Origin: Candidatus Bathyarchaeota archaeon
Lineage (GTDB): Archaea; Thermoproteota; Bathyarchaeia; Bathyarchaeales; Bathyarchaeaceae
Reading direction: 5' to 3'
NCBI GenBank assembly: GCA_030615265.1
Contig: JAUWZP010000003.1
Location: 1 to 49,923 of the forward strand
Length of the DNA: 49,923 nucleotides
Shown here: one piece after another, positions 8,350 through 26,773 of the stretch
How the letters are laid out: each line of letters begins with the position of its first letter
How positions within the stretch are numbered: position 1 is the first letter of the stretch
Notes under the pieces: model-generated
Database searches by the model: none
What the model saw: the letters and a program-made list of their open reading frames with translations, nothing else
Told to the model about the DNA's origin: nothing
Made by a program: the position numbers and the translations under genes

Positions 8350-8355
8350 AAACTC

Positions 8356-8381
8356 CATGCATGCATGTATGCATGCACGCG
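8356..8381. repeat. (ATGC)n palindromic tract
   Basis: CATGCATGCATGTATGCATGCACGCG, 6 bp after the NTPase stop. Confidence 0.9.
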
Positions 8382-8450
8382 GGTTGAAACCGGACATGTA
8401 ATAGATAATTCTTCCACAAATCATAATAAAGACGCGGAAGTCATAACGAA

Positions 8451-11333
8451 ATGATAAATATGAGCAAAATGCTCACGTTAGCGTTTATTCTTGGGATCAT
8501 TCTCCTGGGCATGTTAACGTTAGCATCTAACATTCAACAAGTTAAGGCAATCGGAACCGTTTACATAAGGGCTGACGGTTCAATAGACCCTCCAACAGCA
8601 CCCATACAACGTAACGGAGACCTTTACACACTAACTGGAAACATCACAAGCGATTCTGCGGGGATTGTGATTGAAAGAAACAACATTGTTCTTGACGGGG
8701 CAGGTTACACTGTTCAATTTTTTGGAGTTCATAGTTCATCTGATCAAGCTGGAATAATCTTGACTGACAGAAGTCAAGTAACTGTTAAGAATGTGAACAT
8801 CAAGGAATTCGTTACCGGAATGCAAGTCTTCCACTCTATAGACCTCAACATTTCTGGAAACAATTTGATAAGCAACCTCTGGGGCGTCTATCTCTGGGAT
8901 TCACATGACAGCACGATTTCCGAAAACAATCTAACAGAAAACGGGGATCATGGTATCTATCTCGATGGTTCTTCAAATAACAACATAACCAGAAATAACA
9001 TGGCGAACTCGGGTTTGAGAATTCGAATTGATTCTCCAAATAACAGAATTCTTGAAAACACTTTCATTAATGCCGGTCTATATGTATACGGCTCTCTTGA
9101 CAGCATCGTAGAAGGAAACACTGTAAATGGGAGACCTCTCGTCTACCTTGATGGTGCATCAGACCGCACCGTGGACGATGCGGGACAACTCATACTGATT
9201 GACTCTAACAATATCAAAGTAGAAAATCTTAGTATATCTAACACATCGTATGCTCTACAGCTATTGAGAACAAATAACAGCATCATAACAAACAACAACT
9301 TTGTAGGTAATGCAGGCGGCATAAGTCTGCGGGGTTCTTCCAATAACAGTATAGTGAGAAACAAGATAGTAGCAGGCACGGAGGTCGGCATTTATCTATC
9401 TTCTTTTTCCTCAAATAATAGCATAGTCGAAAATAATGTTACAGACAACCATGCAGGCGTGTGGCTCGGCGGTTCCCCAGGCAACAGCATAACAGAAAAC
9501 AACATAACAGCAAGTGGATGGAGTGGTCTCTACCTCGGCGGTTCAAACTATAACAGAGTTTTTCGAAACAACTTAGTAGACAATAACTATGGCATCCGGT
9601 TTGACTCTTCTCAAGGCAACAACGTATATGAAAACAACATAACAGCAAGCGAATATTCGGGTCTCAGCCTCAGTGGGTCTTCAGACAATAACACGGTTTC
9701 TCGAAACAGCTTAGCAGACAACAACTACGGCATCAGTTTTTCTGGCTTTTCTTCAGGCAATAACGTATTTGAGAACAACATCACACAAAACCATGAATAT
9801 GGTATTTACCTTGAACAGTCTTCAGGCAACAAATTTTATCACAACAACTTTGTAGGTAACACAAACCAAGGTTTTGCGTATGACTCAGTGAATGTATGGG
9901 ATGATGGCTATTTTTCTGGTGGAAACTACTGGAGTGATTACTCTGTTACTGATGAGAAAAGCGGTTCAACCCAAGACCAACCAGGAAGCGACGGCATAAG
10001 AGACATACCTCACAGCCTTGCAGCTGGTAATTCAGATCGTTATCCACTTGTGGACATTTACAGTATAGTTCCTAGCTATCCTATTGCAGTCTTCACCTAT
10101 TCGCCAAGCGACCCAATTAGCGGTCAAATCGTAGTTTTCAATGCATCCAACAGCACCTCGGAGAATGGCACAATAACAACCTACTATTGGAGCTTCGGCG
10201 ATGGAGCCTTCAGCGGAGGCTCAGGTACCACTCATGAATATGCGTCGTATGGAGATTACAAGATCACGCTGACAGTAGTTAGCAACAGTCGCTTGTTAAG
10301 TAACCAAACCAGATTGATATATGTGAGAGAAAGGCCAATTGCCAGCTTTCAGGTTTTTCCAGTGTTCAACCTTTCAGCAGGTCAAGCGATAACGTTTAAT
10401 GCTTCATTATCAAACCCACGCGGCGGAAATATCACAGATTACATTTGGAATTTCGGAGACGGAAACACGACGTCAACGGCAGAACCAGTTGTTACTTACA
10501 CCTATTCACAAGCAATAACTTACAATGTCACGTTGACAGTTCAAGATAGCGAAGATTTGAATTCATCATACTTTCAGATGATTAAAGTCTGGATGCCTAC
10601 ATCTATTTCGATTTCAACAAGCCCGTCGTCTACGTTTGTTGGCTTCGCAGCAGTCATCAATGGCACCCTTTACGATGTTTATGGAAACGGTTTGGAAAAC
10701 CAAACAGTAGTTCTCTACTACACTTTTCCAGGAGCAAACACTTGGGTTCCAATAACCTCCGACACAACAGACCAGCTTGGCAAATACTACGTTAACTGGA
10801 TTCCGCCTGCCACCGGCTACTTCACAGTCAAGGCAATATGGACCGGAAACGCCACACATTTTGAAGCAAACAATACCATCTCTTTAAGCATATTACCTTA
10901 TCAAAATGAGTACGTTTTCTCTGTTACATCTAACTCAACAGTCTCTACTTTGTCTTTTGATTCTGAAAGTAGAGAGCTAAACTTCGATGTGACTGGTCCT
11001 TCAGGAACCATTGGATACGTCAACGTATTTATCGCGAAAGGTCTCATTGCGGACATAGAGGACATTGAGGTAAAACTTAACGATGAGGAAGTAGATTTCG
11101 CAGTCACTTCCTTGGATGATTCATGGCTTCTTCACTTCACCTACCTACACAGCACACATGAAGTAACCATATCCCTAGGCCGCGTCTCCGCCCCGTTTAT
11201 AGAAAGCCTTCTCGGAGGGATTATAATTTTTGCAATAGTGTCTATCACAGTAATAGTCATCATTGTCCTCTTTGTCTTGAAAAGGAAACTCAAGTCGAAC
11301 CAAAAAGAGCCTGTGACAGTAGCTAGATCTTAA
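8451..11333 (+). CDS. Cell-surface protein: NosD/pectin-lyase-like beta-helix, two PKD domains, C-terminal TM anchor
   Basis: Signal peptide; many GIxLxxSxNNxIxxNxI repeats; GNYWSDY; YYWSFGDG and YIWNFGDG PKD motifs; C-terminal TM followed by a KRK tail. Confidence 0.9.
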   Translation: MINMSKMLTLAFILGIILLGMLTLASNIQQVKAIGTVYIRADGSIDPPTAPIQRNGDLYTLTGNITSDSAGIVIERNNIVLDGAGYTVQFFGVHSSSDQAGIILTDRSQVTVKNVNIKEFVTGMQVFHSIDLNISGNNLISNLWGVYLWDSHDSTISENNLTENGDHGIYLDGSSNNNITRNNMANSGLRIRIDSPNNRILENTFINAGLYVYGSLDSIVEGNTVNGRPLVYLDGASDRTVDDAGQLILIDSNNIKVENLSISNTSYALQLLRTNNSIITNNNFVGNAGGISLRGSSNNSIVRNKIVAGTEVGIYLSSFSSNNSIVENNVTDNHAGVWLGGSPGNSITENNITASGWSGLYLGGSNYNRVFRNNLVDNNYGIRFDSSQGNNVYENNITASEYSGLSLSGSSDNNTVSRNSLADNNYGISFSGFSSGNNVFENNITQNHEYGIYLEQSSGNKFYHNNFVGNTNQGFAYDSVNVWDDGYFSGGNYWSDYSVTDEKSGSTQDQPGSDGIRDIPHSLAAGNSDRYPLVDIYSIVPSYPIAVFTYSPSDPISGQIVVFNASNSTSENGTITTYYWSFGDGAFSGGSGTTHEYASYGDYKITLTVVSNSRLLSNQTRLIYVRERPIASFQVFPVFNLSAGQAITFNASLSNPRGGNITDYIWNFGDGNTTSTAEPVVTYTYSQAITYNVTLTVQDSEDLNSSYFQMIKVWMPTSISISTSPSSTFVGFAAVINGTLYDVYGNGLENQTVVLYYTFPGANTWVPITSDTTDQLGKYYVNWIPPATGYFTVKAIWTGNATHFEANNTISLSILPYQNEYVFSVTSNSTVSTLSFDSESRELNFDVTGPSGTIGYVNVFIAKGLIADIEDIEVKLNDEEVDFAVTSLDDSWLLHFTYLHSTHEVTISLGRVSAPFIESLLGGIIIFAIVSITVIVIIVLFVLKRKLKSNQKEPVTVARS

Positions 11334-11445
11334 ACTTGATGACTGTTATCGAAAGTTTTCTGCGGAATAACAATTCTTTCAAAGGTCGCAGTCTCTATGA
11401 CAAGCTTTTTTATGTAGTTTACCCCTGTGAGTGGTGAACACCTAG

Positions 11446-12192
11446 GTGACAAAAAGTATGTCACAACCCGCAAAAACCCTCGAAAACAACATAGACGGTA
11501 ATGATGAAAAATGTCCAGAAATGTCACAATTAATGGAAGATACTGTCCAACCGCAACCACTAGAGGGATTAAACAGTGCTTCTTTTCCAGAATTAACCGA
11601 TTTACAAGGTTTTCAAGGTGAAAATAGTGAAGGTTTCAGCACAGTTTTGACAGAAAAACACGGTTTAAAGCGAAGAAACATGCCTTCCTACCGCATAATC
11701 AACAAGAATTTGAAGAGTAAGAAGCAGTATTGGAAGGAGCGCAACCGCAGAAAAGAAGTGTTGAGGTTAAGCGGTGAATGGCTTACTTATCCTCAAATAG
11801 CAAAGAAGCTAGGTATAAGCACGAAGACTGTGCAACGTGACATGAAGAAGATAGCTCCATACCAAAAAGGGATACTTCTTAGACATTTACGGGAGCTTGA
11901 GGAAAAACGGATTCTAAAGTTTGAGAAGTTAATGGGTCACATGACGTTGAATCAACGGTTCAGAGCCTTAACCAACATGATTATCAAGCAACGTAAACAG
12001 AGGCGTGGGCGTGAGTATAGGAAGCATTTAGTCAAGGTTTTCATTAACATGGATGACGCGATACAAGGTATTCCACGTATCACGCACTGGCCTAACACTA
12101 AACACTTTAAACTCACTATGCCAATGCGAATGCAGTTTTTTGTCGTGATAAAAGGGATGAAACTGTATATGGGCATGTGGGAGCTGTCTTAG
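11446..12192 (+). CDS. HTH DNA-binding protein (likely start ATG 11680)
   Basis: LTYPQIAKKLGISTKTVQRDMKKI helix-turn-helix; the first 78 codons are low-complexity. Confidence 0.7.
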   Translation: MTKSMSQPAKTLENNIDGNDEKCPEMSQLMEDTVQPQPLEGLNSASFPELTDLQGFQGENSEGFSTVLTEKHGLKRRNMPSYRIINKNLKSKKQYWKERNRRKEVLRLSGEWLTYPQIAKKLGISTKTVQRDMKKIAPYQKGILLRHLRELEEKRILKFEKLMGHMTLNQRFRALTNMIIKQRKQRRGREYRKHLVKVFINMDDAIQGIPRITHWPNTKHFKLTMPMRMQFFVVIKGMKLYMGMWELS

Positions 12193-12193
12193 G

Positions 12194-12277
12194 ATGCTTG
12201 AGAAGCTGAAACGTCTAGGTCATTTCATAATAGAAGCAATATGGCAGTTAACGGAGAAGGACCGTAAACGTAAGTAG
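12194..12277 (+). CDS. Putative 27-aa peptide (not in ORF track)
   Basis: MLEKLKRLGHFIIEAIWQLTEKDRKRK*, starting 1 nt after the HTH gene stop. Confidence 0.35.
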   Translation: MLEKLKRLGHFIIEAIWQLTEKDRKRK

Positions 12278-12278
12278 G

Positions 12279-12359
12279 TATAGGACTCGTAGCAGAATTT
12301 TTAAAACTGACTATGGAGACATAAGTCTCTCACGCAATTGTTCTGCTACGAATCCCATG
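12279..12359 (-). repeat. Long inverted repeat / stem-loop
   Basis: Arms TATAGGACTCGTAGCAGAA and TTCTGCTACGAATCCCATG; inner hairpin GAGAC-ATAA-GTCTC. Confidence 0.8.
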
Positions 12360-12454
12360 CTTTGTTGTCAACGTAATCTGACATAAAACGATTTTGCATT
12401 TTTGATACATATCCAACGTCAGTTTTTTCGTGGACTGAAATTTCACAAAAAGGG

Positions 12455-12466
12455 GCATGCATGCAT
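12455..12466. repeat. (ATGC)n tract
   Basis: GCATGCATGCAT preceded by AAAAAGGG. Confidence 0.9.
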
Positions 12467-12536
12467 TCTCCGTTTAATACCGATTGTATAATATACGTGA
12501 AGCAGTGCAAAATTCATTCTGACTGATAATGTTCAG

Positions 12537-13265
12537 GTGGCTGTAAACATGAAGATTCTGAAGTTGTCAGGAACTTACCTGAAAAGAAAGGCGTACCAGC
12601 ACTTGATTTTGGGAACCTTGTGTCTATTTGTTCTTGTTGTCATATTTCTTACAACTGACCCAATTTTGCCTCTTTATATTGACCTAGGGCGGTACGACAA
12701 CACTCGTGCATTTGCAATGATAGTTCCGCTAATTGGGATGCTCATTTTCTACCGACTGCATCGTAGCTACCAGAAAGGCTTTGAAGGAGAAAAACAAGTT
12801 ACCAAAGTTCTTTCTTCAACATTGAGCGACGACTATTTTCTCATCAACGATGTTCAGCTCGTTGCGGGTAAAAAAGGCAACATCGACCATATTGTTCTGG
12901 GACCCACAGGAATATTTGTATTGGAAACCAAAAATTACCGTGGCAAGATTGTATGCTATGAAGATAGTTGGACACGTATAGGTCAGAACCCTTATAAACA
13001 AGCACGCCGCAACGCCTCGACAGTCTATAAGGTTATTAAGGCTTCTGGAATTCTCGCATCAAAACCTCCATGGATTAAAGCGGTTGCAGTTTTCGCTAAC
13101 AAAAAAGTAGAATTAGATAGGCGCAAAGCCCCTTCCAACCCTGAAGTTCTAAAGATTGATGAATTGACCAATTACATAACCCAAGAAACAAGATGTCTAT
13201 CCGCTCAAGAAATTGAGTTAATGAGCAAAGAAATTCTAAACGTGCACGCGAATGTGGGGGGTTAA
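12537..13265 (+). CDS. Membrane-anchored NERD-domain nuclease
   Basis: Two N-terminal TMs; KGFEGEKQV, NIDHIVLGPTGIFVLETKNY and NPYKQARRNA NERD motifs. Confidence 0.88.
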   Translation: MAVNMKILKLSGTYLKRKAYQHLILGTLCLFVLVVIFLTTDPILPLYIDLGRYDNTRAFAMIVPLIGMLIFYRLHRSYQKGFEGEKQVTKVLSSTLSDDYFLINDVQLVAGKKGNIDHIVLGPTGIFVLETKNYRGKIVCYEDSWTRIGQNPYKQARRNASTVYKVIKASGILASKPPWIKAVAVFANKKVELDRRKAPSNPEVLKIDELTNYITQETRCLSAQEIELMSKEILNVHANVGG

Positions 13266-13275
13266 ATCTTAATGC

Positions 13276-13297
13276 CATGCATGCATGCAGCATGTAT
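13276..13297. repeat. (ATGC)n tract
   Basis: CATGCATGCATGCAGCATGTAT between convergent genes. Confidence 0.9.
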
Positions 13298-13327
13298 TTT
13301 TTGCGTTTTCCCATGCTTTTAGGTATA

Positions 13328-14038
13328 TTAACCCTTTTCGCCAATCGGGCAGACGTTTGAGCACTCCTTACACCATAGTACAGAGTATTGTGATACCTCC
13401 TCTAGGTTGCTCTCGCAATAGCTGAGGCAAGCCTCTCTATCGTATTGCCCAGTATCAAATGCGTCTGCCGGACAGGCATCAACACATTTGTTGCATTCGC
13501 GGCAGAAGTCAAGGCTTTCAATGATTGGGTCGGGTTTCAATGATGCGTTAGTATTAACACCGCGTAAACGTATTCGAGGGCCATACTTCTCTGTTACAAG
13601 AAGATTGTTTTTGCCAATAAAACCTAAACCTGCAAGAACCCCTGCACCTTTAAGATAGATCCGGGGCTTATTAGGTGCGGGTTCGGTCCAATATCCCTCT
13701 CGTTCAAGCAAAAGTGAAAGACGTAGTGAGACACCACGCAGGATTTCATCTTCGAATGCACGGTCTGACTTGCCCTGTTGCTTCCAAGAAGGAGGGTGAA
13801 GCCACAGATCCAAAATGGGATCTTCCATCCAGATCGCTAGAACAATAACCGTTTTGGTTCCTTCGGAAGGACGGTTTTCCTCGGGGTACCGCTTGAATCT
13901 CTCAACGTCTGCAAATCCGACGAGGTCAGCTCCCCACTTGATGGATTTTTTCTGAATAAGATGCTTAAGCTGATCAAGTTTCTTCACTGAACTATTTCCA
14001 TCAGACAACCCAACACTTTCTCCAAGGAATTTGTGCAC
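13328..14038 (-). CDS. QueG / reductive-dehalogenase-like 4Fe-4S protein
   Basis: GADLVGFAD, AGLGFIGKNNLLVTEKYGPRIRL, CRECNKCVDACP, C...CKECSNVCP. Confidence 0.85.
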   Translation of the reverse strand: MHKFLGESVGLSDGNSSVKKLDQLKHLIQKKSIKWGADLVGFADVERFKRYPEENRPSEGTKTVIVLAIWMEDPILDLWLHPPSWKQQGKSDRAFEDEILRGVSLRLSLLLEREGYWTEPAPNKPRIYLKGAGVLAGLGFIGKNNLLVTEKYGPRIRLRGVNTNASLKPDPIIESLDFCRECNKCVDACPADAFDTGQYDREACLSYCESNLEEVSQYSVLWCKECSNVCPIGEKG

Positions 14039-14162
14039 GGTTTAAGCATTGAACCGCATATATATAGATAGTCTTGCATGCACGCGTGAGGGTGGCTTCG
14101 GTTTCTGAAATATGTCTGGAATCGTAATCATCACTATATTCTTTCGTTCCTGAATACTATTC

Positions 14163-14723
14163 ATGCGATCTATAGATATTCTGTTGGTTAATGGTGAGCC
14201 TGAGAATGAACGAGATGTAATCAGGATTGTTGAAGATGCGTCGAATTTTTTTCCGATAGAAACGTGGGGCGATGTTAAATATCTTGCAAAACTCATGTTG
14301 GAGCATGACGTTACGATAGCGACTGGTGGAGAATCTTTTGGAGCATTTCTTTTTGAAAAGTTAACTAAAAGGATCGGAAGGATAAAACGCTCCAATAAGT
14401 TGACGAACCTTCTGTTGGGAATAACACCTGATCCAATAATAGCGGTGTACTATTTCCTTGATGGAAGACGCTTCAGAAGGACGCTTCATCTTGTTCATGA
14501 TTACGTTGATGAAAGAATTGGAGTTGTCTCCCTTTTCCGGGTCAACGAAGAGTCTTCAAGCAAGGTTGTAGCCCACGGATTAGGACACAATAGAGGTCTG
14601 CGTCACCATCTGGAACCAATTGACCTTATGTACACCGAACTTCTGAGAACATCCACACTCCAGGTAGAAGGCTTCTGCAAGGTTTGTGTGCGCAAGTTGA
14701 CAGAAGATCGGAAAAACACTTAG
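14163..14723 (+). CDS. Archaemetzincin-like protein with a degenerate active site
   Basis: KVVAHGLGHNRGLRHH, then DLM (Met-turn position) and FCKVC; the Glu of HExxH is Gly. Confidence 0.65.
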   Translation: MRSIDILLVNGEPENERDVIRIVEDASNFFPIETWGDVKYLAKLMLEHDVTIATGGESFGAFLFEKLTKRIGRIKRSNKLTNLLLGITPDPIIAVYYFLDGRRFRRTLHLVHDYVDERIGVVSLFRVNEESSSKVVAHGLGHNRGLRHHLEPIDLMYTELLRTSTLQVEGFCKVCVRKLTEDRKNT

Positions 14724-14740
14724 GCAGGTTTTTGAAAGGC

Positions 14741-15157
14741 TCAATATTCTGGAGGCATACCACCCGGCATGCACGCATGCGGAGCTTCAGTTTTTCCACC
14801 AGATATTACATCGTCGATCCTCAAGATCATTGAAGCGGATTCCACAGCGGATTTTAAGGCCTGTTCCTTAACGCTCAACGGTTCGATAACCCCTCTCTTG
14901 TACATGTCAACTATGCATGCATGATTTGCAACGATATAATCTATCTTTTTGATGTCCAACTGTTTTAGGTTGTCAATCAACGCACGTGTCATAGTTGGAT
15001 CAACAGTGTCTATCAGAGCCGTCTTTTCATTTCCCTTGATTAGATAAGAGTTGTAACTTGTTCCGTCGGGGAGGGGAATAAGTTCATCGAAAAGTCGCCT
15101 GTCCCAATCAACTGCCCCAACCCAGTAGATTCCTGCTTTAATCTTTCTTGGTTTCAT
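14741..15157 (-). pseudogene. Chimeric ORF: flavodiiron protein (FprA) N-terminus fused to a thermosome C-terminus at an (ATGC)n tract
   Basis: [41 protein letters not shown]...DYIVANHA | C | [37 protein letters not shown]...MPGGMPPEY; junction ATGCATGCATG at 14913-14923. Confidence 0.9.
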
Positions 15158-15320
15158 CTTGTTCCACCATTTCAAATTGATCCTTTGTTGCTCCGCAAAT
15201 TGGACAGACCCAATCGTCTGGCAGTTCTTCAAATGACGTTCCTGGTTTCACTCCAGATTCGGAGTCACCCTCATCCGGATCATATATGTACCCGCAAACA
15301 GTACATCTCCATTTCGTCAA
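15138..15320 (-). CDS. Rubredoxin
   Basis: [15 protein letters not shown]...[11 protein letters not shown]; GGTGA before TTG 15320; upstream of fprA as commonly seen. Confidence 0.95.
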
Positions 15321-15423
15321 ATGGTCACCTTCTTCATTCTTTGGAGAGAGGACTTTTTTCATAGTTGCTCGACTTATATAGATTTCGCGAAAATGCATGC
15401 GTGTGCAATGATTCGCTCTGGCT

Positions 15424-15495
15424 ATGACGCTTCAAGAAAAAGAAGACACGCGCAGTGCGCTTCTCGAAGTGTCAAAAGAGTTGTTGCATGCATAA
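15424..15495 (+). pseudogene. N-terminal gene fragment (TetR helix-1-like) ending in an (ATGC)n tract
   Basis: [23 protein letters not shown]; the stop comes immediately after TGCATGCA. Confidence 0.4.
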
Positions 15496-15590
15496 GCGGG
15501 TCTATACATACATTCCTCAGAGCAGTGTTCTGTGACCCAATGCAGATGGAAGCAAGTAAGCAATAGTTTCACTATGCTCTGATGCATGCA

Positions 15591-19612: not shown

Positions 19613-19645
19613 TTACCTCATGTTTAATTTCACAATCGAGGTCTA

Positions 19646-20857
19646 TCAAGGTTTTTGCGGGACTGGTTGATCTATTGTTAGAAAGTAGAAGAGTATCGCT
19701 GCGACGATACCCATCACTCCAAGGATACTGCCCATAACTTCGTAATTGAACAAAACAAGTGCCAATCCTCCTAGTGCTGAACCGAGGGCGTTTCCCAGAC
19801 TTAGAGCAGCCGAGTTTATAGACATCATCGTGCCACGGAATCTTGGTACCTGTTCAAGAGTTAAACTATTAGCTGCTGAAGATGCCATGCCCGAAAACCA
19901 AGTACCGAAGAAATTCAAAGCCAAAGAAAGCCATAAATTCGGCAGATAAACGAAGGAGATTATGAATATACCGGCTAAAAGAGCAGTCAAGACCGTTAAG
20001 CTCTTCCGTCCAAACTTGTTTACAAGCCGACCCGCAAACAAGCTACCCAAAGTGTAGCATAAAGCTGCTCCTATTATTATTAGGGATGCAGAATCTGTTG
20101 ATACCAGAAACTGCTGTCTGAAAAATGATACCCCATAAAGGACAATTGCAACAAACGAGGCAGTGCGAAAAACATTACCAGCCAAGCAAGCAGCCGCAGA
20201 TTTGTTTAGCATGACTCCTCTAAAGCTTCCCAGATAAGTTGTCTTGTTAACTGTCAGCTGCTCACGTGATGTGGATGGAAGGCCAATAAGAGCTAGAAGG
20301 AGACTTGCAAGTGACACAGGAATCACAAATCCTAAGAGGGTCATTCGCCAGCCCCCAATGTCTGCAATTAAAACGATTATTGGAGCTCCAACGAGATATG
20401 ATAGAGACCCCGCAGCTATAATCCATCCAACGGCATTCCCTCTCTTCTCTAAATGTAAGCGTTCCCCGACTAGGGTAATAACCATTGGGAAAACCATGGC
20501 TGTACCTACTCCACTTAGAGAATAGGATATGAGCATTAAGTTGAAGTTGGAAGCCAGAAGACAACCTAAAGCTGAAACTCCGACACATAACAGACCAATA
20601 AGCAGCAATGATTTATGTCTGAATTTAACACTCAAAATGCCCATGAACAACGCGAAGACTACTGAGATAACGGAAGAAAAAGTGTTAATCTGTCCTGCGA
20701 CGCCCACTGAAACTTCGAATGTTAGTGCTATGTCAATTAGAAGTAATGTTATCAGAACTCCCAAGGGTCCTGTCGCAAAATTAGAGATGGCCAATGCGGG
20801 AAGAAACAAGCTTCCAGGAGAGGCTCTCTCTTTGGCGATACTTGAATTGTCATTCAT
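19646..20857 (-). CDS. MFS transporter
   Basis: About 12 TMs; GRLVNKFGRK motif A. Start set to ATG 20857 because the longer track ORF runs through an (ATGC)n tract. Confidence 0.9.
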   Translation of the reverse strand: MNDNSSIAKERASPGSLFLPALAISNFATGPLGVLITLLLIDIALTFEVSVGVAGQINTFSSVISVVFALFMGILSVKFRHKSLLLIGLLCVGVSALGCLLASNFNLMLISYSLSGVGTAMVFPMVITLVGERLHLEKRGNAVGWIIAAGSLSYLVGAPIIVLIADIGGWRMTLLGFVIPVSLASLLLALIGLPSTSREQLTVNKTTYLGSFRGVMLNKSAAACLAGNVFRTASFVAIVLYGVSFFRQQFLVSTDSASLIIIGAALCYTLGSLFAGRLVNKFGRKSLTVLTALLAGIFIISFVYLPNLWLSLALNFFGTWFSGMASSAANSLTLEQVPRFRGTMMSINSAALSLGNALGSALGGLALVLFNYEVMGSILGVMGIVAAILFYFLTIDQPVPQKP

Positions 20858-20948
20858 GTTCTGCAAACTCTGTTGGGTCGGAATGGATATACGAGCGCCG
20901 ATCTTTGTGAATAGGGTTTTGATGCTTTTGTGATTTTCGTGTAGTTTG

Positions 20949-20961
20949 GCATGCATGCATG
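20949..20961. repeat. (ATGC)n tract
   Basis: GCATGCATGCATG. Confidence 0.9.
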
Positions 20962-21029
20962 GACAAGAAATAAGTAGAAACAGGAGACCCAATTATTCAC
21001 ATACCAAAGAGAAGAAAAAAGGTGGTCCC

Positions 21030-21227
21030 ATGAAACAAAGAAACCTAAGATACATAGGTATTGCCTTAATAATTGGAGGGATAATGTTGTTTTTTGATGG
21101 ATTAGGTAGTCTAATCCTCCCAGCAAACTATCATGATTTTTGGTTTGACTTAGAGAGAGTCTTTAGAACAATAGGGAGTCTTCTGTTAATTATCCTAGGA
21201 GCATATTTTGTGAAGGAGACGACATGA
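21030..21227 (+). CDS. Small two-TM membrane protein
   Basis: GGTGG before ATG 21030; two hydrophobic helices. Confidence 0.7.
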   Translation: MKQRNLRYIGIALIIGGIMLFFDGLGSLILPANYHDFWFDLERVFRTIGSLLLIILGAYFVKETT

Positions 21228-21242
21228 ACATACATGTGCAAG

Positions 21243-21286
21243 AAAAGGGAAAGTCAGACCTAGAAGTTTTCTCCTTAAATTATTAA
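21243..21286 (+). repeat. R2 repeat copy
   Basis: AAAAGGGAAAGTCA-N6-GAAGTTTTCTCCTTAAATTATTAA. Confidence 0.85.
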
Positions 21287-21551
21287 CCCCACACACACCC
21301 TCAAACTGCGAAGAGGATTTAGAAACACAAAATAAACGTAAAAACTGTCGTGCCCCAAGTGCACAACCCAAAAAACCTCTATCAGCAAGGAGTGGCCCTG
21401 CAACCCACGTCAAACCAAGGAATTTCTAAACACCCTAGCGGGCATCACGATTCAAGCGCGGAACTTGGATTCCGAATCCGAACTGTCAATTCATAATCCT
21501 TTTACCCTTACCGTTGAAGAAACTAGAAAATCAACAGAGGGAATAATCTAA

Positions 21552-22214
21552 ATGTGGAAAAAACGAATCTCAATCGCTTTGATGCTAGTGTGCTCTCTAC
21601 TGCTGGTTTCTTCGATCGCACAGGCTGCAACAATAATTGCATGCGCTTTCGACAAGGACGGGTATTATCCGGGTCAAACAGGCTACATCGCAGTCACAGT
21701 ATACAACGATGAGGAAAGCACGATCAGGGTCGATAAGCTTTCTGCAACCATAGACTACTACTACACTGATGAAGATGTCTACCTGCAAACATTCTTCAAC
21801 TATCCTGATCCCCCGAAGGAAATCTTACAAGGAGAATCCTATACTTTCAACATTGATTTCAGCCTGCCAACGAACGTAGCCCCTGGTTACACAACTCTTC
21901 ATGTAAAAGCCGAAACCGAAATTTGGAACGACGGCTCTGAGTGGCGGGGATCAGACCATCCAACCTACAGTCCGACACTCTACATAGAATCGCCCTACAA
22001 GAACCAGTTAGAGGCACAAGAGGCAGCCAACCAAGAACTAGAGACAACCAACCAGCAGGTAACGGGACAATTACATGAACAACAGATACTCAACCAACAG
22101 ATCACAAATATGATGTACGTTCTGGGAGCTACCGCAGTGGGTTTCGCCGCTGTGATAGGACTACTACTCTTACTCCTCAAAAAAGCAAGAATCCTTGCAC
22201 AGCCTGCAGCCTAG
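21552..22214 (+). CDS. Exported Ig-like protein with coiled coil and C-terminal TM anchor
   Basis: Signal peptide, beta-rich domain, Q/E coiled coil, TM followed by KK. Confidence 0.75.
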   Translation: MWKKRISIALMLVCSLLLVSSIAQAATIIACAFDKDGYYPGQTGYIAVTVYNDEESTIRVDKLSATIDYYYTDEDVYLQTFFNYPDPPKEILQGESYTFNIDFSLPTNVAPGYTTLHVKAETEIWNDGSEWRGSDHPTYSPTLYIESPYKNQLEAQEAANQELETTNQQVTGQLHEQQILNQQITNMMYVLGATAVGFAAVIGLLLLLLKKARILAQPAA

Positions 22215-22332
22215 TCAAAGCGCACCCAAAGTCTACTACTCTTCAACATGATAGCGTGAGCAATGCGCCCAAAGGTTCATTGAATATTATATCAAACAAG
22301 ATGAAGTAAACACTAGACCAAAAAGGGGAGAG

Positions 22333-22482
22333 TTAGTGCTTGCACAATGATGTACGAACTATTCTCCTAATAGCTGGTCTAGAAGGACACTCCACGTATA
22401 TCACAGGGCAAGATTCATTTTCACAATTCCATTTGCTGGACGCTTTCACCAAAGGTTCTCCACAATCTGGGCAATCTACCAA
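22333..22482 (-). CDS. Small Zn-finger protein (49 aa; not in ORF track)
   Basis: GGTGA then TTG; MVDCPDCGEPLVKASSKWNCENESCPVIYVECPSRPAIRRIVRTSLCKH*; followed by a CCCCTTTTT terminator-like tract. Confidence 0.65.
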   Translation of the reverse strand: MVDCPDCGEPLVKASSKWNCENESCPVIYVECPSRPAIRRIVRTSLCKH

Positions 22483-22540
22483 GTTCTCACCATGAACACA
22501 TTAGAAAGTGGAATGTAAAAGAATTATGAACCTAGGATTC

Positions 22541-22623
22541 TAAAGCAAAATCCATGAACCCTCAAAAAAGGGAAAGTCAAGCATGGAACTTTTCTCCTTA
22601 AATTATTAATGCACCTTGAAATG
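22541..22623 (+). repeat. R2 repeat copy (longest; imperfect palindrome)
   Basis: TAAAGCAAAATCCATG...AAAAGGGAAAGTCAAG-CATGGAACTTTTCTCCTTAAATTATTAATGCACCTTGAAATG. Confidence 0.85.
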
Positions 22624-22641
22624 ATGTAACGTATATATGCA

Positions 22642-23115
22642 ATGAGTGGAAGGTTGGTGATTCTTGATTTGAGCTTCTTTGTCAATGCTCCTCAAGAAGA
22701 GGCGTTTCAGTTAATGACAGACTTTTTTAATGGAAGAGGTATGAGAATACTAACCTCAAACTTACCTTCATATGTAAAGGCAGAATTTGGTTCTTGGACT
22801 TCCATATCCCTTGACAATGCAAAAGGAGAGGTCAAAGTTGATCTAGCAAAAGCAAATCGTGGAAGTTATGCAAATCTCCACTTTAGCTTTTCTTCGGAAT
22901 ACCTTATGGGTTTTGCAGTTACACTGTTTTTTGCAGCTACCACGTACATCATCTACGCAATGCTTGAAATCCCTATCAGGTTTGCACTGATCGTAATATT
23001 AGTTGAAGTCATCTTTGTTGTATGTATCATTGGATACTCGGTCTCACTGACAAGGAGAAGATTCATAGAAGAGTTCAACATGTTTCTACAGTCCTTGGCT
23101 TCGAAGAGAGAGTGA
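22642..23115 (+). CDS. Hypothetical membrane protein
   Basis: Soluble N-terminal domain plus two TMs; the stop codon overlaps an (ATGC)n tract. Confidence 0.7.
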   Translation: MSGRLVILDLSFFVNAPQEEAFQLMTDFFNGRGMRILTSNLPSYVKAEFGSWTSISLDNAKGEVKVDLAKANRGSYANLHFSFSSEYLMGFAVTLFFAATTYIIYAMLEIPIRFALIVILVEVIFVVCIIGYSVSLTRRRFIEEFNMFLQSLASKRE

Positions 23116-23126
23116 TGCATGCATGC
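23115..23126. repeat. (ATGC)n tract
   Basis: ATGCATGCATGC joining two genes. Confidence 0.9.
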
Positions 23127-24166
23127 CTGTTGTTGGGATGGCTATTATGAATGAGAAAACTTTGGTAAAAATCCTGACAAAATCACTGAAGAAGGCTTTC
23201 TGGTTGGTTTTGCCTGAATTCGGAGTGCAGTCATACGAGGGCTTCAAGAAGGTTGATGTAACAGCTTTCAAATGGAAGAATGAAGTGGATGTTGAAGTAG
23301 TTCCGTTCGAATGCAAGTGCCAAAAGACTGCTAGGGACAGCTTTCTTGCTGCCTTAGGACAAGCTGTTGAGTATCAACGGTTCTTTCCGGAGGTCTTCAT
23401 AGTCACTCAAAACGATAAGCTATTTCCAGATCAAAAGTTGATCCTTGAAAAACTTGGTCTGGGTCTGATGATGATCAACGAGCTGGAAGAACTTGAACGC
23501 GGTGTTGAGCCGTCGATGAACGGAAATGTTCTTTATGATGAGAGTCTGTTTTCTAATCAGGTCAGAAATAGAGCTGTCTTGCTACTTGTTTTCAACGAAT
23601 TGTTTCCTGAAGCATGTAAGAATAGCTACTTTGGCGGTCAGAGTAGAGGAGAACTGTGGATCTACAACAAGCCGATCGGTGAAGTCCAGATTCGTGCTTG
23701 GACAGGTATAGAAAGTGCCTCTTACCTTGGCATCAACATCGAAGCAGTCAAGCTAATTAGGAATATCACCAGAAACTTGGATTTGGATGAGCTCTTAGCA
23801 GTCTTCAGCAAATTACCTCCTGAATATACAGTGGACTTTGGCGAGAGAGCAACAATAAAGGACAAAAGTGGACATCCGATTCGTTTAGACAGACAAAAAG
23901 GAACTATCCCCATTGAGGGATCTATCTTTGAAAGCCAAAGATTTAGCGAAAGTGGTTTCTCAGCGTGTAATCTAGCAAAGGAACAAATACAGAAGGAGAT
24001 TATCGAGAGAAGCAAGAAACTGAACTTCTATACACATCTGCTAATTGACAAGAAAGTTTGGGATGTTAAAAGCACATTGACAAGAGACCAATACTTCAGA
24101 GAGATTCACAAAGCCAAGGAAACTTTGGATGAAATCTATAGAAGATTGACGCAATGGGCAGAATGA
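23123..24166 (+). CDS. PD-(D/E)XK restriction-endonuclease-like protein (start possibly 23147)
   Basis: VDVTAF...PFECK and ALGQAVEY (QxxxY) motifs. Confidence 0.7.
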   Translation: MPVVGMAIMNEKTLVKILTKSLKKAFWLVLPEFGVQSYEGFKKVDVTAFKWKNEVDVEVVPFECKCQKTARDSFLAALGQAVEYQRFFPEVFIVTQNDKLFPDQKLILEKLGLGLMMINELEELERGVEPSMNGNVLYDESLFSNQVRNRAVLLLVFNELFPEACKNSYFGGQSRGELWIYNKPIGEVQIRAWTGIESASYLGINIEAVKLIRNITRNLDLDELLAVFSKLPPEYTVDFGERATIKDKSGHPIRLDRQKGTIPIEGSIFESQRFSESGFSACNLAKEQIQKEIIERSKKLNFYTHLLIDKKVWDVKSTLTRDQYFREIHKAKETLDEIYRRLTQWAE

Positions 24167-24450
24167 AAACATGCGAGCGCTCCATATGTATGCATTTCAG
24201 TTAGCCTCTTCGTTTATGCATGCATATTATACCTTTCATTTGATTTCAAATTCTAACATGGTATGTATGCATTCTCTGCTGTCGAGTCGTGGTCTAAGCT
24301 CCTTCTCTTCGCTCATGAGAATCACATTAGAAAAATGGGGCGTCTAGGAAGATAGTCCTGAAGTGTACACTTTAGCCCTTGAAGTACGCCATTTTTTTCT
24401 TCATACAGCCAAATACATGCATGTTGTGTTGGGAAATATGAAGAACGAAC

Positions 24451-25113
24451 CTACGGTCTCCGTAAAGTATCCCCCGATTCCCGGAGCTCAATCGTTCCGA
24501 CGCACGGATCATATAACTCGTTAAATTCGTCTGGATTACTAATTGTCCGCATAGCTGCGAAGGCACGGATGCGAGTTTGCGGAAAAACATCTGCCAACCG
24601 ATTCGCAGCACCTAGGAGAGTTGCGCCACGCGTGACTATGTCATCGACCAACACAATTTCATCTGGTTTGATGAGATGCCCCCTGATTCCCATTGACTCG
24701 TAGTGTTCAGTGGGAATTGGTCTCTCCTGTGGTACGCTTGATGCCGCCTTAGGCACAGGTTTAACCCGAACAAGGCACGGAAAAACCATGTTTCCGAACC
24801 CCATTCTGGCTAGAGCCGTAGCAATTCGCTCGGGAACCCACAGCGTGTCTGGTTGCATCAAAGAACTCTTTGGAGTGGGAACTAGGATTGTGTTAGGTTG
24901 AAAAAATGAAGTAAATGGGAGTGTTGCTCTATTTTGTTGTATTGTCTGCGCTACCCATTTTGACATTAGGACTCCTTGCGCGTACGCTGGGTCTTCAACA
25001 AATCTTTCATTCTTAAGTGCAATCATAAAATCCCTAGCATGCCGTATTTTAGGCGAATTCCCTCGAGGTGTATACGATAAGAGCGCACTAAACTCAAGTT
25101 GAGCTAGGCGCAT
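24451..25113 (-). CDS. Phosphoribosyltransferase (ComF / ShosT-like)
   Basis: LVPTPKS and the PRPP-binding loop IVLVDDIVTRGATL. Confidence 0.88.
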   Translation of the reverse strand: MRLAQLEFSALLSYTPRGNSPKIRHARDFMIALKNERFVEDPAYAQGVLMSKWVAQTIQQNRATLPFTSFFQPNTILVPTPKSSLMQPDTLWVPERIATALARMGFGNMVFPCLVRVKPVPKAASSVPQERPIPTEHYESMGIRGHLIKPDEIVLVDDIVTRGATLLGAANRLADVFPQTRIRAFAAMRTISNPDEFNELYDPCVGTIELRESGDTLRRP

Positions 25114-25116
25114 GGC

Positions 25117-25812
25117 TCATGGAGCAACCTTGAGGATTCTTCCGCTGAACGGTAAAACATCCAGCACTTCTTTTGGATCAGTGAGTACCATGGCTCCATA
25201 CTCGAGCATCTTCTTTGGCCAACTCAATGAAGAGTCATTCATGATGGAACTCCAAATGAAGAGCGGTCGTCCAAGCCTGAGAGCCTCCCATCCTTGATGC
25301 AGAGAGCCGCTGGTATCCCCCGCCTCGACAATGATTGAGGCGTCAGAAATGAGTGCCATCAGTCGATTTCGAATAACGAAATTTTTCCGCTGAGTTGGAT
25401 ACCCCATTGGAAATTGGGAAATCGCCATGTGGTGGCGCATAATGACCTCTTGAAGTCGGGAGTTTTTTTGTGGGTAAACGCGGTCTAAGGATGTTCCGAG
25501 AACCGCGATCGTGTGTCCCCCCTCTTCAATGGCGGCTTTGTGTGCCGAAGTGTCAATTCCCTCAGCAAGCCCGCTAACAACTATGGCCTTTCCTTTGACA
25601 AGAGTTCTTGCAATGTCACTTGCTGCTTGGAGACCTTCCGGAGACGCTTTCCTTGAGCCTATTACTGCTGACCTCGGACTTGGCAGCGGAATCGGCAGAT
25701 CACCTGCCACGTAGAGTTCCTTTGGAGCATACTTGTCTTCCACATCGTTTAGCGGACCCACAAGATCCTCGAAGGTGTGAGTTGAGGTTTTTATTCCTTT
25801 TTGCATCTCCAT
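25117..25812 (-). CDS. DprA/Smf-like protein (Rossmann domain only)
   Basis: AVIGSR, VSGLAEGID, RNRLMALIS, VEAGDTSGSLH. The track's N-terminal extension crosses (ATGC)n tracts and is probably spurious. Confidence 0.9.
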   Translation of the reverse strand: MEMQKGIKTSTHTFEDLVGPLNDVEDKYAPKELYVAGDLPIPLPSPRSAVIGSRKASPEGLQAASDIARTLVKGKAIVVSGLAEGIDTSAHKAAIEEGGHTIAVLGTSLDRVYPQKNSRLQEVIMRHHMAISQFPMGYPTQRKNFVIRNRLMALISDASIIVEAGDTSGSLHQGWEALRLGRPLFIWSSIMNDSSLSWPKKMLEYGAMVLTDPKEVLDVLPFSGRILKVAP

Positions 25813-25875
25813 CAATCTTTCCTGAGAAATCACGACTATTAATAGTCTTTCATGGAAATTTATAACACTATCGCT

Positions 25876-25928
25876 ATGCATGCATGGGGAGTTTTGCGGG
25901 GGATCTCTCCACTCTTGCATGCATACAT
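25876..25928. repeat. R1 copy between two (ATGC)n tracts
   Basis: ATGCATGCATG-GGGAGTTT-TGCGGGGGATCTCTCCACTC-T-TGCATGCATACAT. Confidence 0.8.
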
Positions 25929-26008
25929 TCCGTATCAGTCTAGCCTGCACTGCAAAAGCGAAAAGAAAAAAGGGAGTTTAGAACGTACTTTTCAAGAAGG
26001 AAAACAGT

Positions 26009-26773
26009 CTGTCAGGCGAAAAGAAACAGATCAAAAGATGGATAGTTCCTGCGGGAAAAAAGGAAAAACTTCTGATTGCTACAACGTCTCATCCAGAAGG
26101 AAACTCAAAGCTTATCATCAAGATATTAGGCAAACTTAATGAGCACTTGACATTATCTGTCAAAGATGACGGGACTTTTGATTTTCATCATACAAAGGAA
26201 GGGAAAGAAAAGAACTACATCCCGCTTGCAAAAGGTCGCATAAAGCTAGACGAACTACGTGAAGCTGCGGAAGAATGGTATCGAAACACGTCCAAAGCCT
26301 TTGAGAATCCTATGAAGATAACTGACCAATCTCTCCAAGAACTCATCTTTTTGATTCCAAAAAGCCAAGATTTGCTGAAAGAATTCTATGCAAGATACTA
26401 TCCCATCAAGAGGCGAAAGCAGATCTATCCTGACTCAAAAACTCAAAGACTCATGGCAAGGAATCTGCAGCGCTACTTTCTCGTTGGCTATGCGGACGAA
26501 GTTGCTGGAGAAGAATTTGTGTTTGCTATTTTGTTCAATCCAGAAGACGAGTCAGTGAATTTTCTGTTCAACAACCACGGGAAGTGTTGGGTTATGGATC
26601 TCACAGCTTTAGCAAGCATATTACCCCAATCATTTGAAATTGAGTCAAGATATTGTTATCGTTGCGGCACTGAGGTTCCTCTAACCAGCGGCTGGTGCCC
26701 TATCTGCAAGAAAAGGATCAGGAAAATGCACACAAACGAGAAAAAAAGGGAAATCGCATGTATGGAGGAATAG
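26009..26773 (+). CDS. Hypothetical protein with C-terminal Zn ribbon (start uncertain: CTG 26009 or TTG 26147)
   Basis: Frame is open from 25982; CYRC...CPIC at the C-terminus. Confidence 0.65.
   Translation: MSGEKKQIKRWIVPAGKKEKLLIATTSHPEGNSKLIIKILGKLNEHLTLSVKDDGTFDFHHTKEGKEKNYIPLAKGRIKLDELREAAEEWYRNTSKAFENPMKITDQSLQELIFLIPKSQDLLKEFYARYYPIKRRKQIYPDSKTQRLMARNLQRYFLVGYADEVAGEEFVFAILFNPEDESVNFLFNNHGKCWVMDLTALASILPQSFEIESRYCYRCGTEVPLTSGWCPICKKRIRKMHTNEKKREIACMEE

Follow-up and report, generated by a model that had tools for sequence, protein, structure and literature searches.

The window analyzed here, 49,923 nucleotides (nt) in all, is contig C44 (JAUWZP010000003.1) of the metagenome-assembled genome (MAG) GCA_030615265.1 of a Candidatus Bathyarchaeota archaeon, called G000 below, and the subject is a set of short (ATGC)n tracts that punctuate a genomic island within it. 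The MAG comprises 1.86 Mb on 119 contigs, with a marker completeness of 96% and a contamination of 3.5%; the G+C content of the window is 43.8%. The right half of the window carries archaeal information genes, including those for aIF2-gamma, Rpb7, and RpoD with a ferredoxin insert, and the nearest named relatives of the aIF2-gamma are Candidatus Bathyarchaeia and Bathyarchaeum MAGs, at 63 to 71% identity. The homologue of the gene at 2727-3221 directly adjoins aIF2-gamma in a genome of the same genus (G003) and in three genomes of other genera (G013, G017, and G020). Thus, the 23.9 kb that separate this gene from the aIF2-gamma gene (27189-28457) in the window, from 3275 to an approximate right border at 27150, are an insertion. 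All 17 perfect ATGC-period tracts of at least 8 nt lie inside this island, and none lies in the other 26,047 nt of the window, whose core operons are tract-free; of the 26 alternating purine-pyrimidine runs of at least 12 nt, 23 are in the island and 3 outside it. A separate 4.4-kb insertion a few genes from this locus in G017 holds three tracts, one of them 16 nt past a stop codon, and a 5.9-kb insertion in G013 holds one.

The left part of the island resembles an integrated element. At its left edge is the gene for a tyrosine recombinase of 430 residues (3275-4567, + strand; Pfam Phage_integrase, 8.7e-11), which reaches only 51 bits against a cut-off of 220 for the NCBIfam XerA model and was rejected as an integron integrase on the NCBIfam scan. 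There follow a 525-residue protein without matches (4569-6146, - strand) and a 578-residue protein (6613-8349, + strand) with weak NS1-like NTPase and winged-helix Pfam matches, all below the curated cut-offs, and a match to phrog_12057 (5.8e-09); the two probably form the replication and maintenance module of the element. The remaining cargo is mutually unrelated and lies on mixed strands: a NosD/PKD surface protein, an HTH protein, a NERD protein, a ferredoxin-domain protein, an ABC transporter, a nitroreductase, a DUF362 protein, an MFS transporter, and a DprA-like protein. The NERD-domain protein (12537-13265, + strand) aligns with the N-terminal portion of the model for the MAD6 kinase of the methylation-associated defence system (2e-20, far below the cut-off) and is possibly a defence-island remnant. 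A search against Rfam returned nothing in the island at an E value of 0.1 or better, and at the outer borders we saw no tract, no obvious direct repeat, and no att-type repeat.

A preliminary description of the window, made from its letters and open reading frames, had claimed about 18 perfect or decayed (ATGC)n tracts in the island and no perfect tract of at least 10 nt in the core genes after 27.1 kb. Both claims hold. The mechanical scan found the 17 perfect tracts, 8 to 14 nt long and all within 8356-25924, starting at 8356, 8369, 12455, 13276, 14075, 14913, 15393, 15485, 15582, 15631, 19599, 20949, 23115, 24216, 24416, 25876, and 25916. The decayed tracts that the preliminary description listed at 14767, 15627, 24186, 24262, and 24414 are genuine alternating purine-pyrimidine runs of 12 to 15 nt; the two it called degenerate are weaker, the one near 21223 being a 13-nt alternating run (21228-21240) and the one at 26756 having only about 10 alternating bases. 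Its remark that tracts lie close to stop codons is also borne out: the tract at 8356 begins 6 nt past the stop of 6613-8349, that at 13276 begins 10 nt past a stop, that at 23115 overlaps the stop of 22642-23115 and the start of 23123-24166, and those at 24416 (after 24451-25113, - strand), 19599, and 24216 follow at 27, 33, and 49 nt.

From left to right, the first tract is a compound one of 26 alternating bases (8356-8381). The 12-nt tract at 12455-12466 caps a copy of a repeat family (12194-12454), whose homology to C30:38381-38589 and C7:4616-4805 ends there. A 14-nt tract (13276-13289) separates the convergent genes 12537-13265 and 13328-14038, and the tract at 14075-14088 forms the upstream border of a mobile module (14095-14761) built around a gene for a 186-residue protein. 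A decayed tract (14767-14781) and the tract at 14912-14923 belong to the pseudogene described below. Two more, at 15393-15407 and 15485-15493, lie in a 440-nt non-coding patchwork (15233-15675), and for the second, where the preliminary description had a gene breaking off, we found no homologue on either flank. At 15582-15639, two tracts flank a 37-nt piece of a dispersed motif, and at 25875-25928, at the 5' end of the DprA-like gene, two tracts flank a 29-nt piece of the same motif. Between these lie a 17-nt alternating tract (19596-19612) separating the convergent genes 18644-19501 and 19646-20992; a 13-nt tract (20949-20961) at the 5' edge of the MFS gene, differing in length between populations; a 12-nt tract (23115-23126), at whose last base homology to C56:1-208 (92.8%) ends in both copies; three perfect or decayed tracts (24183-24272) downstream of 23123-24166; and a decayed tract at 24413-24424.

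Abundance, sequence class, and distribution of the repeats

The tracts are not peculiar to the island: 266 of at least 8 nt, the longest of 23 nt, occur on 75 of the 119 contigs. Counting words genome-wide against an order-3 Markov expectation on both strands, a check that had been proposed for this locus, reveals a large excess. The 8-mer ATGCATGC, with 433 occurrences against 68 expected, is among the five commonest 8-mers; the 12-mer ATGCATGCATGC occurs 77 times against 0.31, and CATGCATGCATG 60 times against 0.35. Among tetranucleotide repeats of at least 12 nt, only the ATGC family is enriched (72 tracts, the runner-up being AAAG with 13), and the other palindromic tetranucleotide repeats (ACGT, AGCT, GATC, and AATT types) do not exceed expectation. 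The (GC)n word GCGCGCGC is also enriched more than 10-fold (280 against 18.7). Of 315 non-coding alternating runs, 129 contain a palindrome of at least 10 nt, versus 205 of 1,575 shuffles that keep the alternation; that is, self-complementarity exceeds what alternation alone gives. From the word excess and this surplus of palindromy together, it follows that the class is one of self-complementary alternating repeats of GC and AT steps. Tract lengths show no period of 4; they form a hump at 10 to 14 nt and fall sharply above 14. Nor do the tract ends have a preferred phase, the four rotations being used 87, 86, 65, and 60 times. Decayed copies retain the purine-pyrimidine alternation.

Two known kinds of sequence invite comparison. 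HIP1 of the cyanobacteria is a short palindromic word, hugely over-represented in its lineage and suspected of a link to recombination, and the ATGC tracts resemble it in being a lineage-specific, over-represented palindrome with a suspected tie to recombination. HIP1, however, is a word of fixed length found in genes and spacers alike, whereas the tracts are tandem repeats of 8 to 23 nt, mostly outside genes (123 of 150 are not fully coding), clustered in islands, and of two flavors. Like Z-DNA-prone sequences, the tracts, including the (CG)n ones, alternate strictly and are rich in GC and CA/TG steps, and both are associated with deletions and rearrangements. Genome instability and deletions have been associated with Z-DNA (PMC4060949; bioRxiv 10.64898/2026.05.04.722794), and simple repeats and alternating runs are described as normally suppressed in prokaryotic genomes (PMC4060949). 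Here, in contrast, they are enriched more than 10-fold, with palindromy beyond alternation; any Z-DNA at the tracts would be a potential read from the sequence.

In G000, the repeats avoid genes. Based on genes called with a home-made open reading frame caller (2,030 genes, 82.6% coding), the 150 tracts of at least 10 nt divide into 110 intergenic, 13 at gene edges, and 27 coding, in a genome of which 17.6% is non-coding. Tracts lie closer to stop codons (median, 77 nt; 10 nt or less in 21 of 142 cases) than to start codons (median, 156 nt; 10 nt or less in 5 of 140). The tracts are also clustered: 99 of the 181 that measure at least 9 nt fall into 19 clusters, which together take up 76.7 kb, or 4.1% of the genome. 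There are 23 pairs of tracts no more than 160 nt apart, and the sequences that they enclose are unrelated; that is, there is no repeated body between paired ends, as a transposon or a miniature inverted-repeat transposable element would have. No conserved arm sequences flank the tracts. A mobile element with ATGC ends was rejected on the unrelated sequences between close pairs and on the absence of any TnpB match in the MAG, TnpB being the transposase-associated family that was searched. Among the paralogue families in tract clusters, a four-member recombinase family is the most enriched (three of four; P = 0.002, uncorrected). TATA-binding protein (TBP), epimerase, ZIP, and beta-lactamase-fold paralogues were considered as special to the clusters and set aside as ordinary cargo. 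The 1.86-Mb genome does hold seven TBP paralogues (on contigs including C114, C16, C4, C68, C85, and C100), several of which adjoin tracts and a repeat family of about 350 nt that is truncated at varying points.

Among relatives, the trait is clade-restricted and comes in two flavors, (ATGC)n here and (GC)n in sister lineages. The ATGC 12-mer occurs in 17 of 24 other genomes of the family, with most hits in G017 (96), G006 (37), and G018 (21), and the carriers include the single-contig genomes G013 and G018; it is missing from G001 and G003, which belong to the same genus as G000. Only 2 of 16 genomes from other families of the order have it. In a class-wide comparison, 21 of 201 genomes have any hit, and at least five hits are reached only in three genomes of family f1 (G000, G017, and G044) and two of family f6 (G190 and G039). 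The (GC)5 10-mer occurs in 21 of the 24 family genomes, with 233 hits per strand in G022, 135 in G016, 92 in G001, 66 in G005, and 17 in G000 itself; outside the family, it is present in 3 of 16 genomes, with one or two hits each. Across 25 family genomes, ATGC and GC counts correlate with a rho of 0.51, a description only, as kin are not independent. The G+C content of the sampled loci is 42 to 48% in both flavors and 37.5% in the tract-free G023. A crude open reading frame call over 16 sampled regions of G022 places 15 of 22 (GC)n tracts between genes, and many lie 1 to 40 nt from a stop codon. In genus g20, none of five genomes, including a closed one of 2.15 Mb, has the ATGC 12-mer, and G023, the one of the five searched for the GC 10-mer, lacks that as well; the genus offers a natural negative control in any hunt for the agent. 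The preliminary picture of the tracts as a feature of this one island needs recasting: the coincidence with synteny breaks relative to other genomes stands, but the tracts are spread genome-wide and family-wide and have a (GC)n twin.

A viral origin was considered and rejected, since only 43 of about 2.9 million viral contigs contain the 16-mer, and these form no coherent group related to the genome. Eleven of the viral contigs (L105, L106, L120, L126, L128, L131-L135, and L137; 4.4 to 8.4 kb, most about 7 kb; 56 to 58% G+C) share a conserved pair of ATGC tracts, of 10 nt and 17 to 19 nt, set 65 to 72 nt apart from start to start; their composition is unlike that of G000.

Tracts at the ends of homology

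The tracts coincide with the exact points at which related segments stop being homologous. The genome was compared with itself by blastn (alignments of at least 80 nt at an E value of 1e-10 or better; 734 non-self alignments), and a tract with an alignment within 60 nt was scored as lying at an alignment end when no more than 12 nt from it and as spanned when at least 30 nt were aligned on both sides. Of the 266 tracts, 48 are near a paralogous alignment, 31 at its end and only 4 spanned, versus 921 at ends only and 1,764 spanned among 20,000 random intergenic 11-nt sites (odds ratio, 14.8; Fisher P = 6e-11). Tracts of (CG)n of at least 8 nt behave alike, with 25 at ends versus 5 spanned (odds ratio, 9.6). 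The other repeats do not: the ratio of ends to spanned is 11:21 for (AG)n, 0:7 for (AAAG)n, 7:21 for other tetranucleotide repeats, and 9:17, 3:10, and 6:12 for tri-, penta-, and hexanucleotide repeats. These control repeats are equally low in complexity; thus, masking cannot explain the difference. In a second test, only the 70-nt flanks of 181 ATGC tracts were used, with the tract itself excluded and no low-complexity filter. It yielded 38 one-flank junctions, 4 two-parent junctions, 1 collinear case, 18 tracts whose matches end short of them, and 120 tracts without paralogues. In 31 of 39 alignment pairs inspected, homology stops within 3 nt of the tract edge, although the pairs share tracts and are not independent.

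The individual junctions are of more than one kind. At the two-parent tract C7:5672-5684, the left flank is that of C113 and the right flank is that of C27, inverted, and both partners carry tracts. The repeat family capped by a tract at 12454 in the window is capped by another at C30:18716, 17 nt earlier in the repeat, and two further copies continue without a tract. On C119, a tract stands immediately 3' of a tRNA-Ile gene, and the copy on C104 runs on into other sequence. The tRNA-Ile(GAT)/tRNA-Arg(TCG) pair there is present twice (C104:15312-15558 and C119:2229-2650; 88.7% identity over 124 nt), either because an element integrated at the tRNA or because two strains share one bin. Small collinear replacements also occur. 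On C115, an 11-nt tract takes the place of 39 nt that lie between two ATG triplets on C77, with two additional units on an ATG at the deletion, and between C22 and C40 about 11 nt are replaced at a tract.

The best-resolved junction lies in the window, where a gene had been said to break off at 14913. The break is genuine, as blastx and an alignment to an intact homologue agree. The open reading frame at 14741-15232 (- strand) is no gene but a dead chimera of an N-terminal metallo-beta-lactamase-fold piece and a C-terminal thermosome piece, identified by Pfam, by blastx, and by alignment to G004, a genome of the same genus in which the gene for the 186-residue protein is followed by an intact, convergent thermosome gene. 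The window keeps the last 57 or so thermosome codons; homology ends at ...ACTAT, after which come GCATGCATG and the beta-lactamase-fold piece. Of the 11-nt tract at 14913, 2 bases are native to the thermosome gene, 6 (TGCATG) are the His-Ala codons of the other fragment, and about 3 belong to neither. At 14767, the decayed tract stands in for some 17 nt of the tail of the thermosome gene, at an ATGC native to that gene (part of its Met-Pro codons in G004). The module 14095-14761, which is duplicated on C89 at 86% identity, is followed there by a thermosome remnant that GCGCGCGC cuts after about 14 nt, and G004 has no such seed at this point. Taken together, the seeded cases and the seedless one on C89 mean that some tracts grew from seeds in place and that others stand where no seed is visible. 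Aligning flanks to intact homologues, which the preliminary description had recommended as a way of telling insertion from growth, thus gives a divided answer: growth from a native seed at 14767 and on C115, and no visible seed elsewhere, as on C89.

The gene for the 186-residue protein (14163-14723) is present in 14 of 60 family genomes, and its upstream surroundings at the 15 loci compared are of ten kinds. At least four of these, unrelated to one another and in other genera, have an alternating tract of varying sequence at -88 to -105, which is exactly where conservation between genera stops.

Metagenomes extend the comparison to other populations. Of the words sampled from 12000-16500, 89% occur in the run X1, which is possibly the source; ten further runs from seven other studies (2015-2025) contain 22 to 34%. 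Contigs of X2, X3, X4, and X7 were aligned to 8000-27000, joints with a side shorter than 30 nt were discarded, and no conclusion was drawn from island stretches that X3 and X7 leave uncovered. The tract at 19599 is spanned by contigs of X2 (302 nt) and X4 (325 nt) with one mismatch each, and a 320-nt contig of X2 spans 23945-24264. Contigs of X2 and X4 have one additional GCAT unit at 20948, the one site at which we saw length vary by a whole unit between populations, and contigs of X3 differ at the tract at 14767 by +G and +CG. The gene that ends at 23115 has a different neighbor in X2 and X4, where ATATGCATGCA... leads from it into the module found from 17999 onward in the window. The profiles of these two runs are nearly identical, so that their independence is uncertain. 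A contig of X3, with a side of 35 nt and low depth, joins 12257 to 22337 via TGCATGCATGCAA, and G000 has no tract at either place.

A proposed route of local expansion, breakage, and joining

In total, these observations describe a genomic signature that is real, unusual, and tied to DNA rearrangement with strong statistical support, short of a demonstrated new system; they suggest a lineage-specific mode of DNA breakage and rejoining. The reading that we favor, and to which we would give an even chance, is that the tracts are lineage-specific, self-complementary purine-pyrimidine microsatellites that expand locally and act as preferred breakpoints and as microhomology. The excess is specific to clade and to sequence, the tracts are confined to unconstrained and variable DNA, their lengths vary by whole units, at least two of them grew from seeds, and they coincide strongly with rearrangements and breaks of synteny. 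The mechanism of expansion and joining, on the other hand, we infer. We posit that expansion would occur by slipped-strand or fold-back (hairpin) mispairing during DNA synthesis. Since any two tracts could pair, in either orientation and in several registers, they would be favored microhomology, and probably fragile sites, for illegitimate recombination. Such recombination would shuffle, truncate, and juxtapose gene modules inside islands, and no dedicated enzyme would be required.

Under this reading, two-parent junctions, seeds, unit polymorphism, and the absence of an enzyme signal are all explained. The tracts also stand close to the simple-sequence repeats of prokaryotic contingency loci, which vary by slipped-strand mispairing and are likewise tandem tetranucleotides with whole-unit polymorphism between populations. 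The tracts differ from these in having only 2 to 6 units, in being non-coding and not positioned to switch genes, in being self-complementary only, and in lying at rearrangement breakpoints. They share the defining features of microsatellites in part, growth from a pre-existing seed being seen in two cases (the thermosome tail and C115/C77) with many junctions seedless, and they lack those of integrons and of HIP1-like words. The junction tie, the self-complementarity, and the lineage flavors set them apart from known repeats. In the searchable literature, which leaves most subscription journals outside, we found no description of natural (ATGC)n tracts, only primers and oligonucleotides.

Several points weigh against this reading. 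Why should ATGC and GC repeats expand and no others? Slippage alone does not explain it. Why does the flavor differ between close relatives of similar G+C content (42 to 48%)? The hump at 10 to 14 nt with its sharp drop above 14 is unlike an open-ended microsatellite, and the seedless, tract-less paralogues, together with the joint of 12257 and 22337 in X3, fit added filler better than pre-existing sites. The evidence also has its own weaknesses: the gene positions come from a crude caller, the control sites were not matched for distance to gene ends, near which both tracts and alignment ends lie, some between-contig "paralogues" may be co-binned strain variants, given the 3.5% contamination, and the junction statistics come from one genome. 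Based on the unexplained specificity, the flavors, the 10- to 14-nt optimum, and the seedless junctions, we keep four alternatives alive.

The preliminary description had offered the tracts as either sites used to join unrelated DNA or filler added during end joining. What stands of this is the concentration in variable DNA and the coincidence with ends of homology; the cases do not decide between site and filler, as some are tract-to-tract exchanges, some are growth from a native seed, and in some neither partner bears a tract. A bolder form of the idea, doubtful but possible, is that the family has a joining route of its own, in which broken DNA ends, or those of incoming DNA, acquire or are trimmed to self-complementary repeats, (ATGC)n or (GC)n depending on the lineage, that would pair whatever their orientation and so serve as universal sticky ends for stitching unrelated modules into islands, the flavor being set by a fast-evolving enzyme, whether polymerase, nuclease, or recombinase.

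The first of the four alternatives, which we regard as unlikely though deserving of attention, is that the tract is made at the joint: a polymerase would extend broken 3' ends by fold-back or slipping self-templated synthesis, and the tails would anneal and be ligated. If true, end joining would have a route not seen before. Much in the junctions would look as this predicts, namely, the one repeat family truncated at different points with a tract on each stump and no seed in its tract-less copies, the small collinear replacements of about 17 nt (thermosome tail), 39 nt (C115 versus C77), and about 11 nt (C22 versus C40), the C89 remnant cut by GCGCGCGC without a seed in G004, the short foreign pieces between two tracts at 15582-15639 and 25875-25928, the X3 joint via TGCATGCATGCAA, and the lack of a preferred phase at the tract ends. 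At the joint resolved best, 14913, all but about 3 nt are nevertheless native to one side or the other, two-parent junctions with a tract in both parents need no synthesis, and untemplated synthesis would not readily yield a repeat of fixed sequence. The polymerase itself is also wanting. The 96%-complete MAG has no match to Ku (PF02735), as Ku-dependent end joining would need, none to RVT_1, on which a telomerase-like or defence reverse transcriptase was rejected as the tract maker, none to Prim-Pol, and PolX matches only below the cut-off. It encodes one Y-family and three family-B polymerases. The third family-B gene (C64:5124-6830, - strand) lies on a tract-rich contig of 6.9 kb, is 54% identical to the copy on C55, and was probably acquired horizontally; it was dismissed as the agent because its type is present or absent irrespective of tracts and occurs in other families too.

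Chemistry of the required sort does exist in the test tube, and we know of no in vivo counterpart of such hairpin-driven elongation. Thermococcus litoralis polymerase, a thermophilic enzyme, is on record as elongating palindromic tandem repeats in vitro through hairpins (Ogata and Miura 2000, cited in PMC13061963, which itself treats hairpin-driven self-amplifying repeats). Like the DRT3 reverse transcriptases, it makes or lengthens self-complementary or alternating repeats without an external template, according to these accounts. Their products, however, are test-tube or defence products rather than genomic junctions.

Less likely again is that the tracts are a selected structural element of gene or module borders, such as a Z-DNA or supercoil sink, an insulator, a 3'-end element, or a protein-binding site, with the association with junctions arising from modules copied along with their border elements. 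Placement just past stop codons in two flavors and two genomes (the 21 of 142 and 15 of 22 given above) would be explained, but the same pattern would remain if purifying selection removed insertions from promoters and genes. Recurrence at -88 to -105 of the 186-residue protein's gene in several genera with differing sequence, alternation kept in decayed copies, and the preferred length would all suit a selected element, and since alternating runs are reported to be generally suppressed in prokaryotes (PMC4060949), their excess here needs explanation. Against this, many genes and whole genera do without tracts (none of five g20 genomes has the 12-mer, and the core operons of the window have no tract), and tracts cap truncated pseudogene fragments and lie in dead genes, where no function is expected.

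Site-specific recombination we consider improbable. Here the tracts would be tyrosine-recombinase crossover sites that bound integron-like cassettes, and their palindromic core could be used either way round and in more than one register. Two-parent junctions with tracts in both parents, one of them inverted, are what such a system would leave, and recombinases are at hand: the MAG has 16 Phage_integrase matches, 5 of 13 called recombinase genes have a tract 1 to 188 nt past the stop codon (C74, 1 nt; C98, 24 nt; C3, 41 nt; C34, 121 nt; C30, 188 nt), and the four-member family leads in the tract clusters. But most island genes also have a tract just downstream, and the recombinase genes are not special. 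Recombinase counts fail to track tract counts across 25 family genomes (rho, 0.22); G004 and G007 have tracts and no integrase match, although they are only 64% and 81% complete, and G001 and G023 have 11 and 10 matches and no ATGC 12-mer. The borders of the island are tract-less, as are many junction partners, and no arms are conserved. A link to the preliminary candidates, namely, the integrase, NTPase, and HTH protein at the left end of the island, is thus unsupported, on the counts and on the tract-less borders.

Integrons do occur in Archaea (Ghaly et al. 2022), and integron attC arrays resemble the island in holding unrelated genes, with a short imperfect palindrome near the stop codon and modules in varying contexts. 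There the likeness ends. The best scores of the four recombinases scanned are 56 bits against a cut-off of 265 for integron integrases and 85 against 220 for XerA, so that no integron integrase stands next to the array. By a simple pattern, attC core pairs are not enriched (6 sites, or 12 on both strands, versus 10.2 in 50 shuffles) and do not lie at cassette ends, so that attC does not follow each cassette. Nor are the modules co-oriented, promoterless cassettes, as they lie on mixed strands with a promoter-like element of their own before many of them, and a simple repeat of 10 to 14 nt is unlike a structured attC site of 60 to 150 nt.

Very improbable is amplification driven by a nuclease, in which a strain-specific restriction or nicking enzyme would cut in the repeat (at CATG, TGCA, or GCATGC, or at GCGC or CGCG in the GC flavor), fill-in and rejoining would duplicate the site, and repeats would grow at the scars. 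Restriction systems turn over fast, and this would explain why flavors differ among close relatives. A polymerase and a nicking enzyme together are reported to make self-replicating repeats in vitro (bioRxiv 10.1101/518118). In long coding sequences, however, the sites within the repeat are not avoided (ratios of 0.93 for CATG, 1.01 for TGCA, 0.99 for GCATGC, 1.04 for ATGCAT, and 0.88 for GCGC), unlike GGCC (0.41) and GATC (0.68), which speaks against a restriction enzyme that cuts within the repeat; the tract ends without fixed phase and the lengths without a period of 4 also fit poorly, and no such enzyme was identified. With CCGG (0.69) also under-represented, the shortage of GGCC, GATC, and CCGG is what restriction systems of these specificities would leave if active in the lineage.

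An artefact of assembly, binning, or library preparation is largely refuted and has next to no claim left: although the MAG is fragmented and contig ends have 7 of the 181 tracts within 200 nt of them versus 4.6 expected, tracts of 8 to 14 nt are shorter than assembler k-mers, contigs of other studies span 19599 and 24186-24225 and show 20949 with its extra unit, and many other assemblies carry the 12-mer, only 4 of 201 class genomes besides G000 having at least five hits. The weak excess near contig ends suggests that tracts may add to the fragmented assembly of islands.

What, then, would the tracts mean? An uncultured sediment clade enriches what prokaryotes normally suppress, a repeat that marks where genomes were cut and rejoined. 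Little is known of how Archaea join DNA ends. If the tracts act passively, as we favor, they are a natural breakpoint marker and offer a tractable instance of archaeal gene shuffling driven by microhomology; should an enzyme make or use them, they would point to a new gene-capture mechanism and a possible DNA-joining tool. In practice, they flag the borders of islands and modules in Bathyarchaeia MAGs.

Two further elements recur beside the tracts. The dispersed motif, of which pieces are enclosed between two ATGC tracts in the window, is about 32 nt long and consists of an A-run, then GGGGAGTTTGC, and then GGGGGAYATCTCCAC. It has about 20 good copies genome-wide, including those at 15591-15610, 17995-18029, 19521-19558, and 25895-25914. 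It often precedes remnants resembling a tRNA T-arm (on C89 and C114), for which Rfam returned only a T-arm-like hairpin on C114, and it may be an attachment-site remnant or a 5' leader.

The promoter-like element, highly conserved over about 40 nt, has two parts, a TATA-like core, TTAAATTATTAA, and a fixed stretch downstream of it, TGCAACTTGAAATGA. The element is found at about 70 places genome-wide, usually 40 to 150 nt upstream of a gene, and in the window at 22586-22624, 21267-21286, 41668-41705, and 41315-41332. In some copies, (GT)n, (GGGTTT)n, or an ATGC tract stands in place of the upstream or the downstream half. Among the contigs of the metagenomes, the bin of the element has a depth above 2,500 with loose ends on both sides; thus, the element is common to many loci and organisms.

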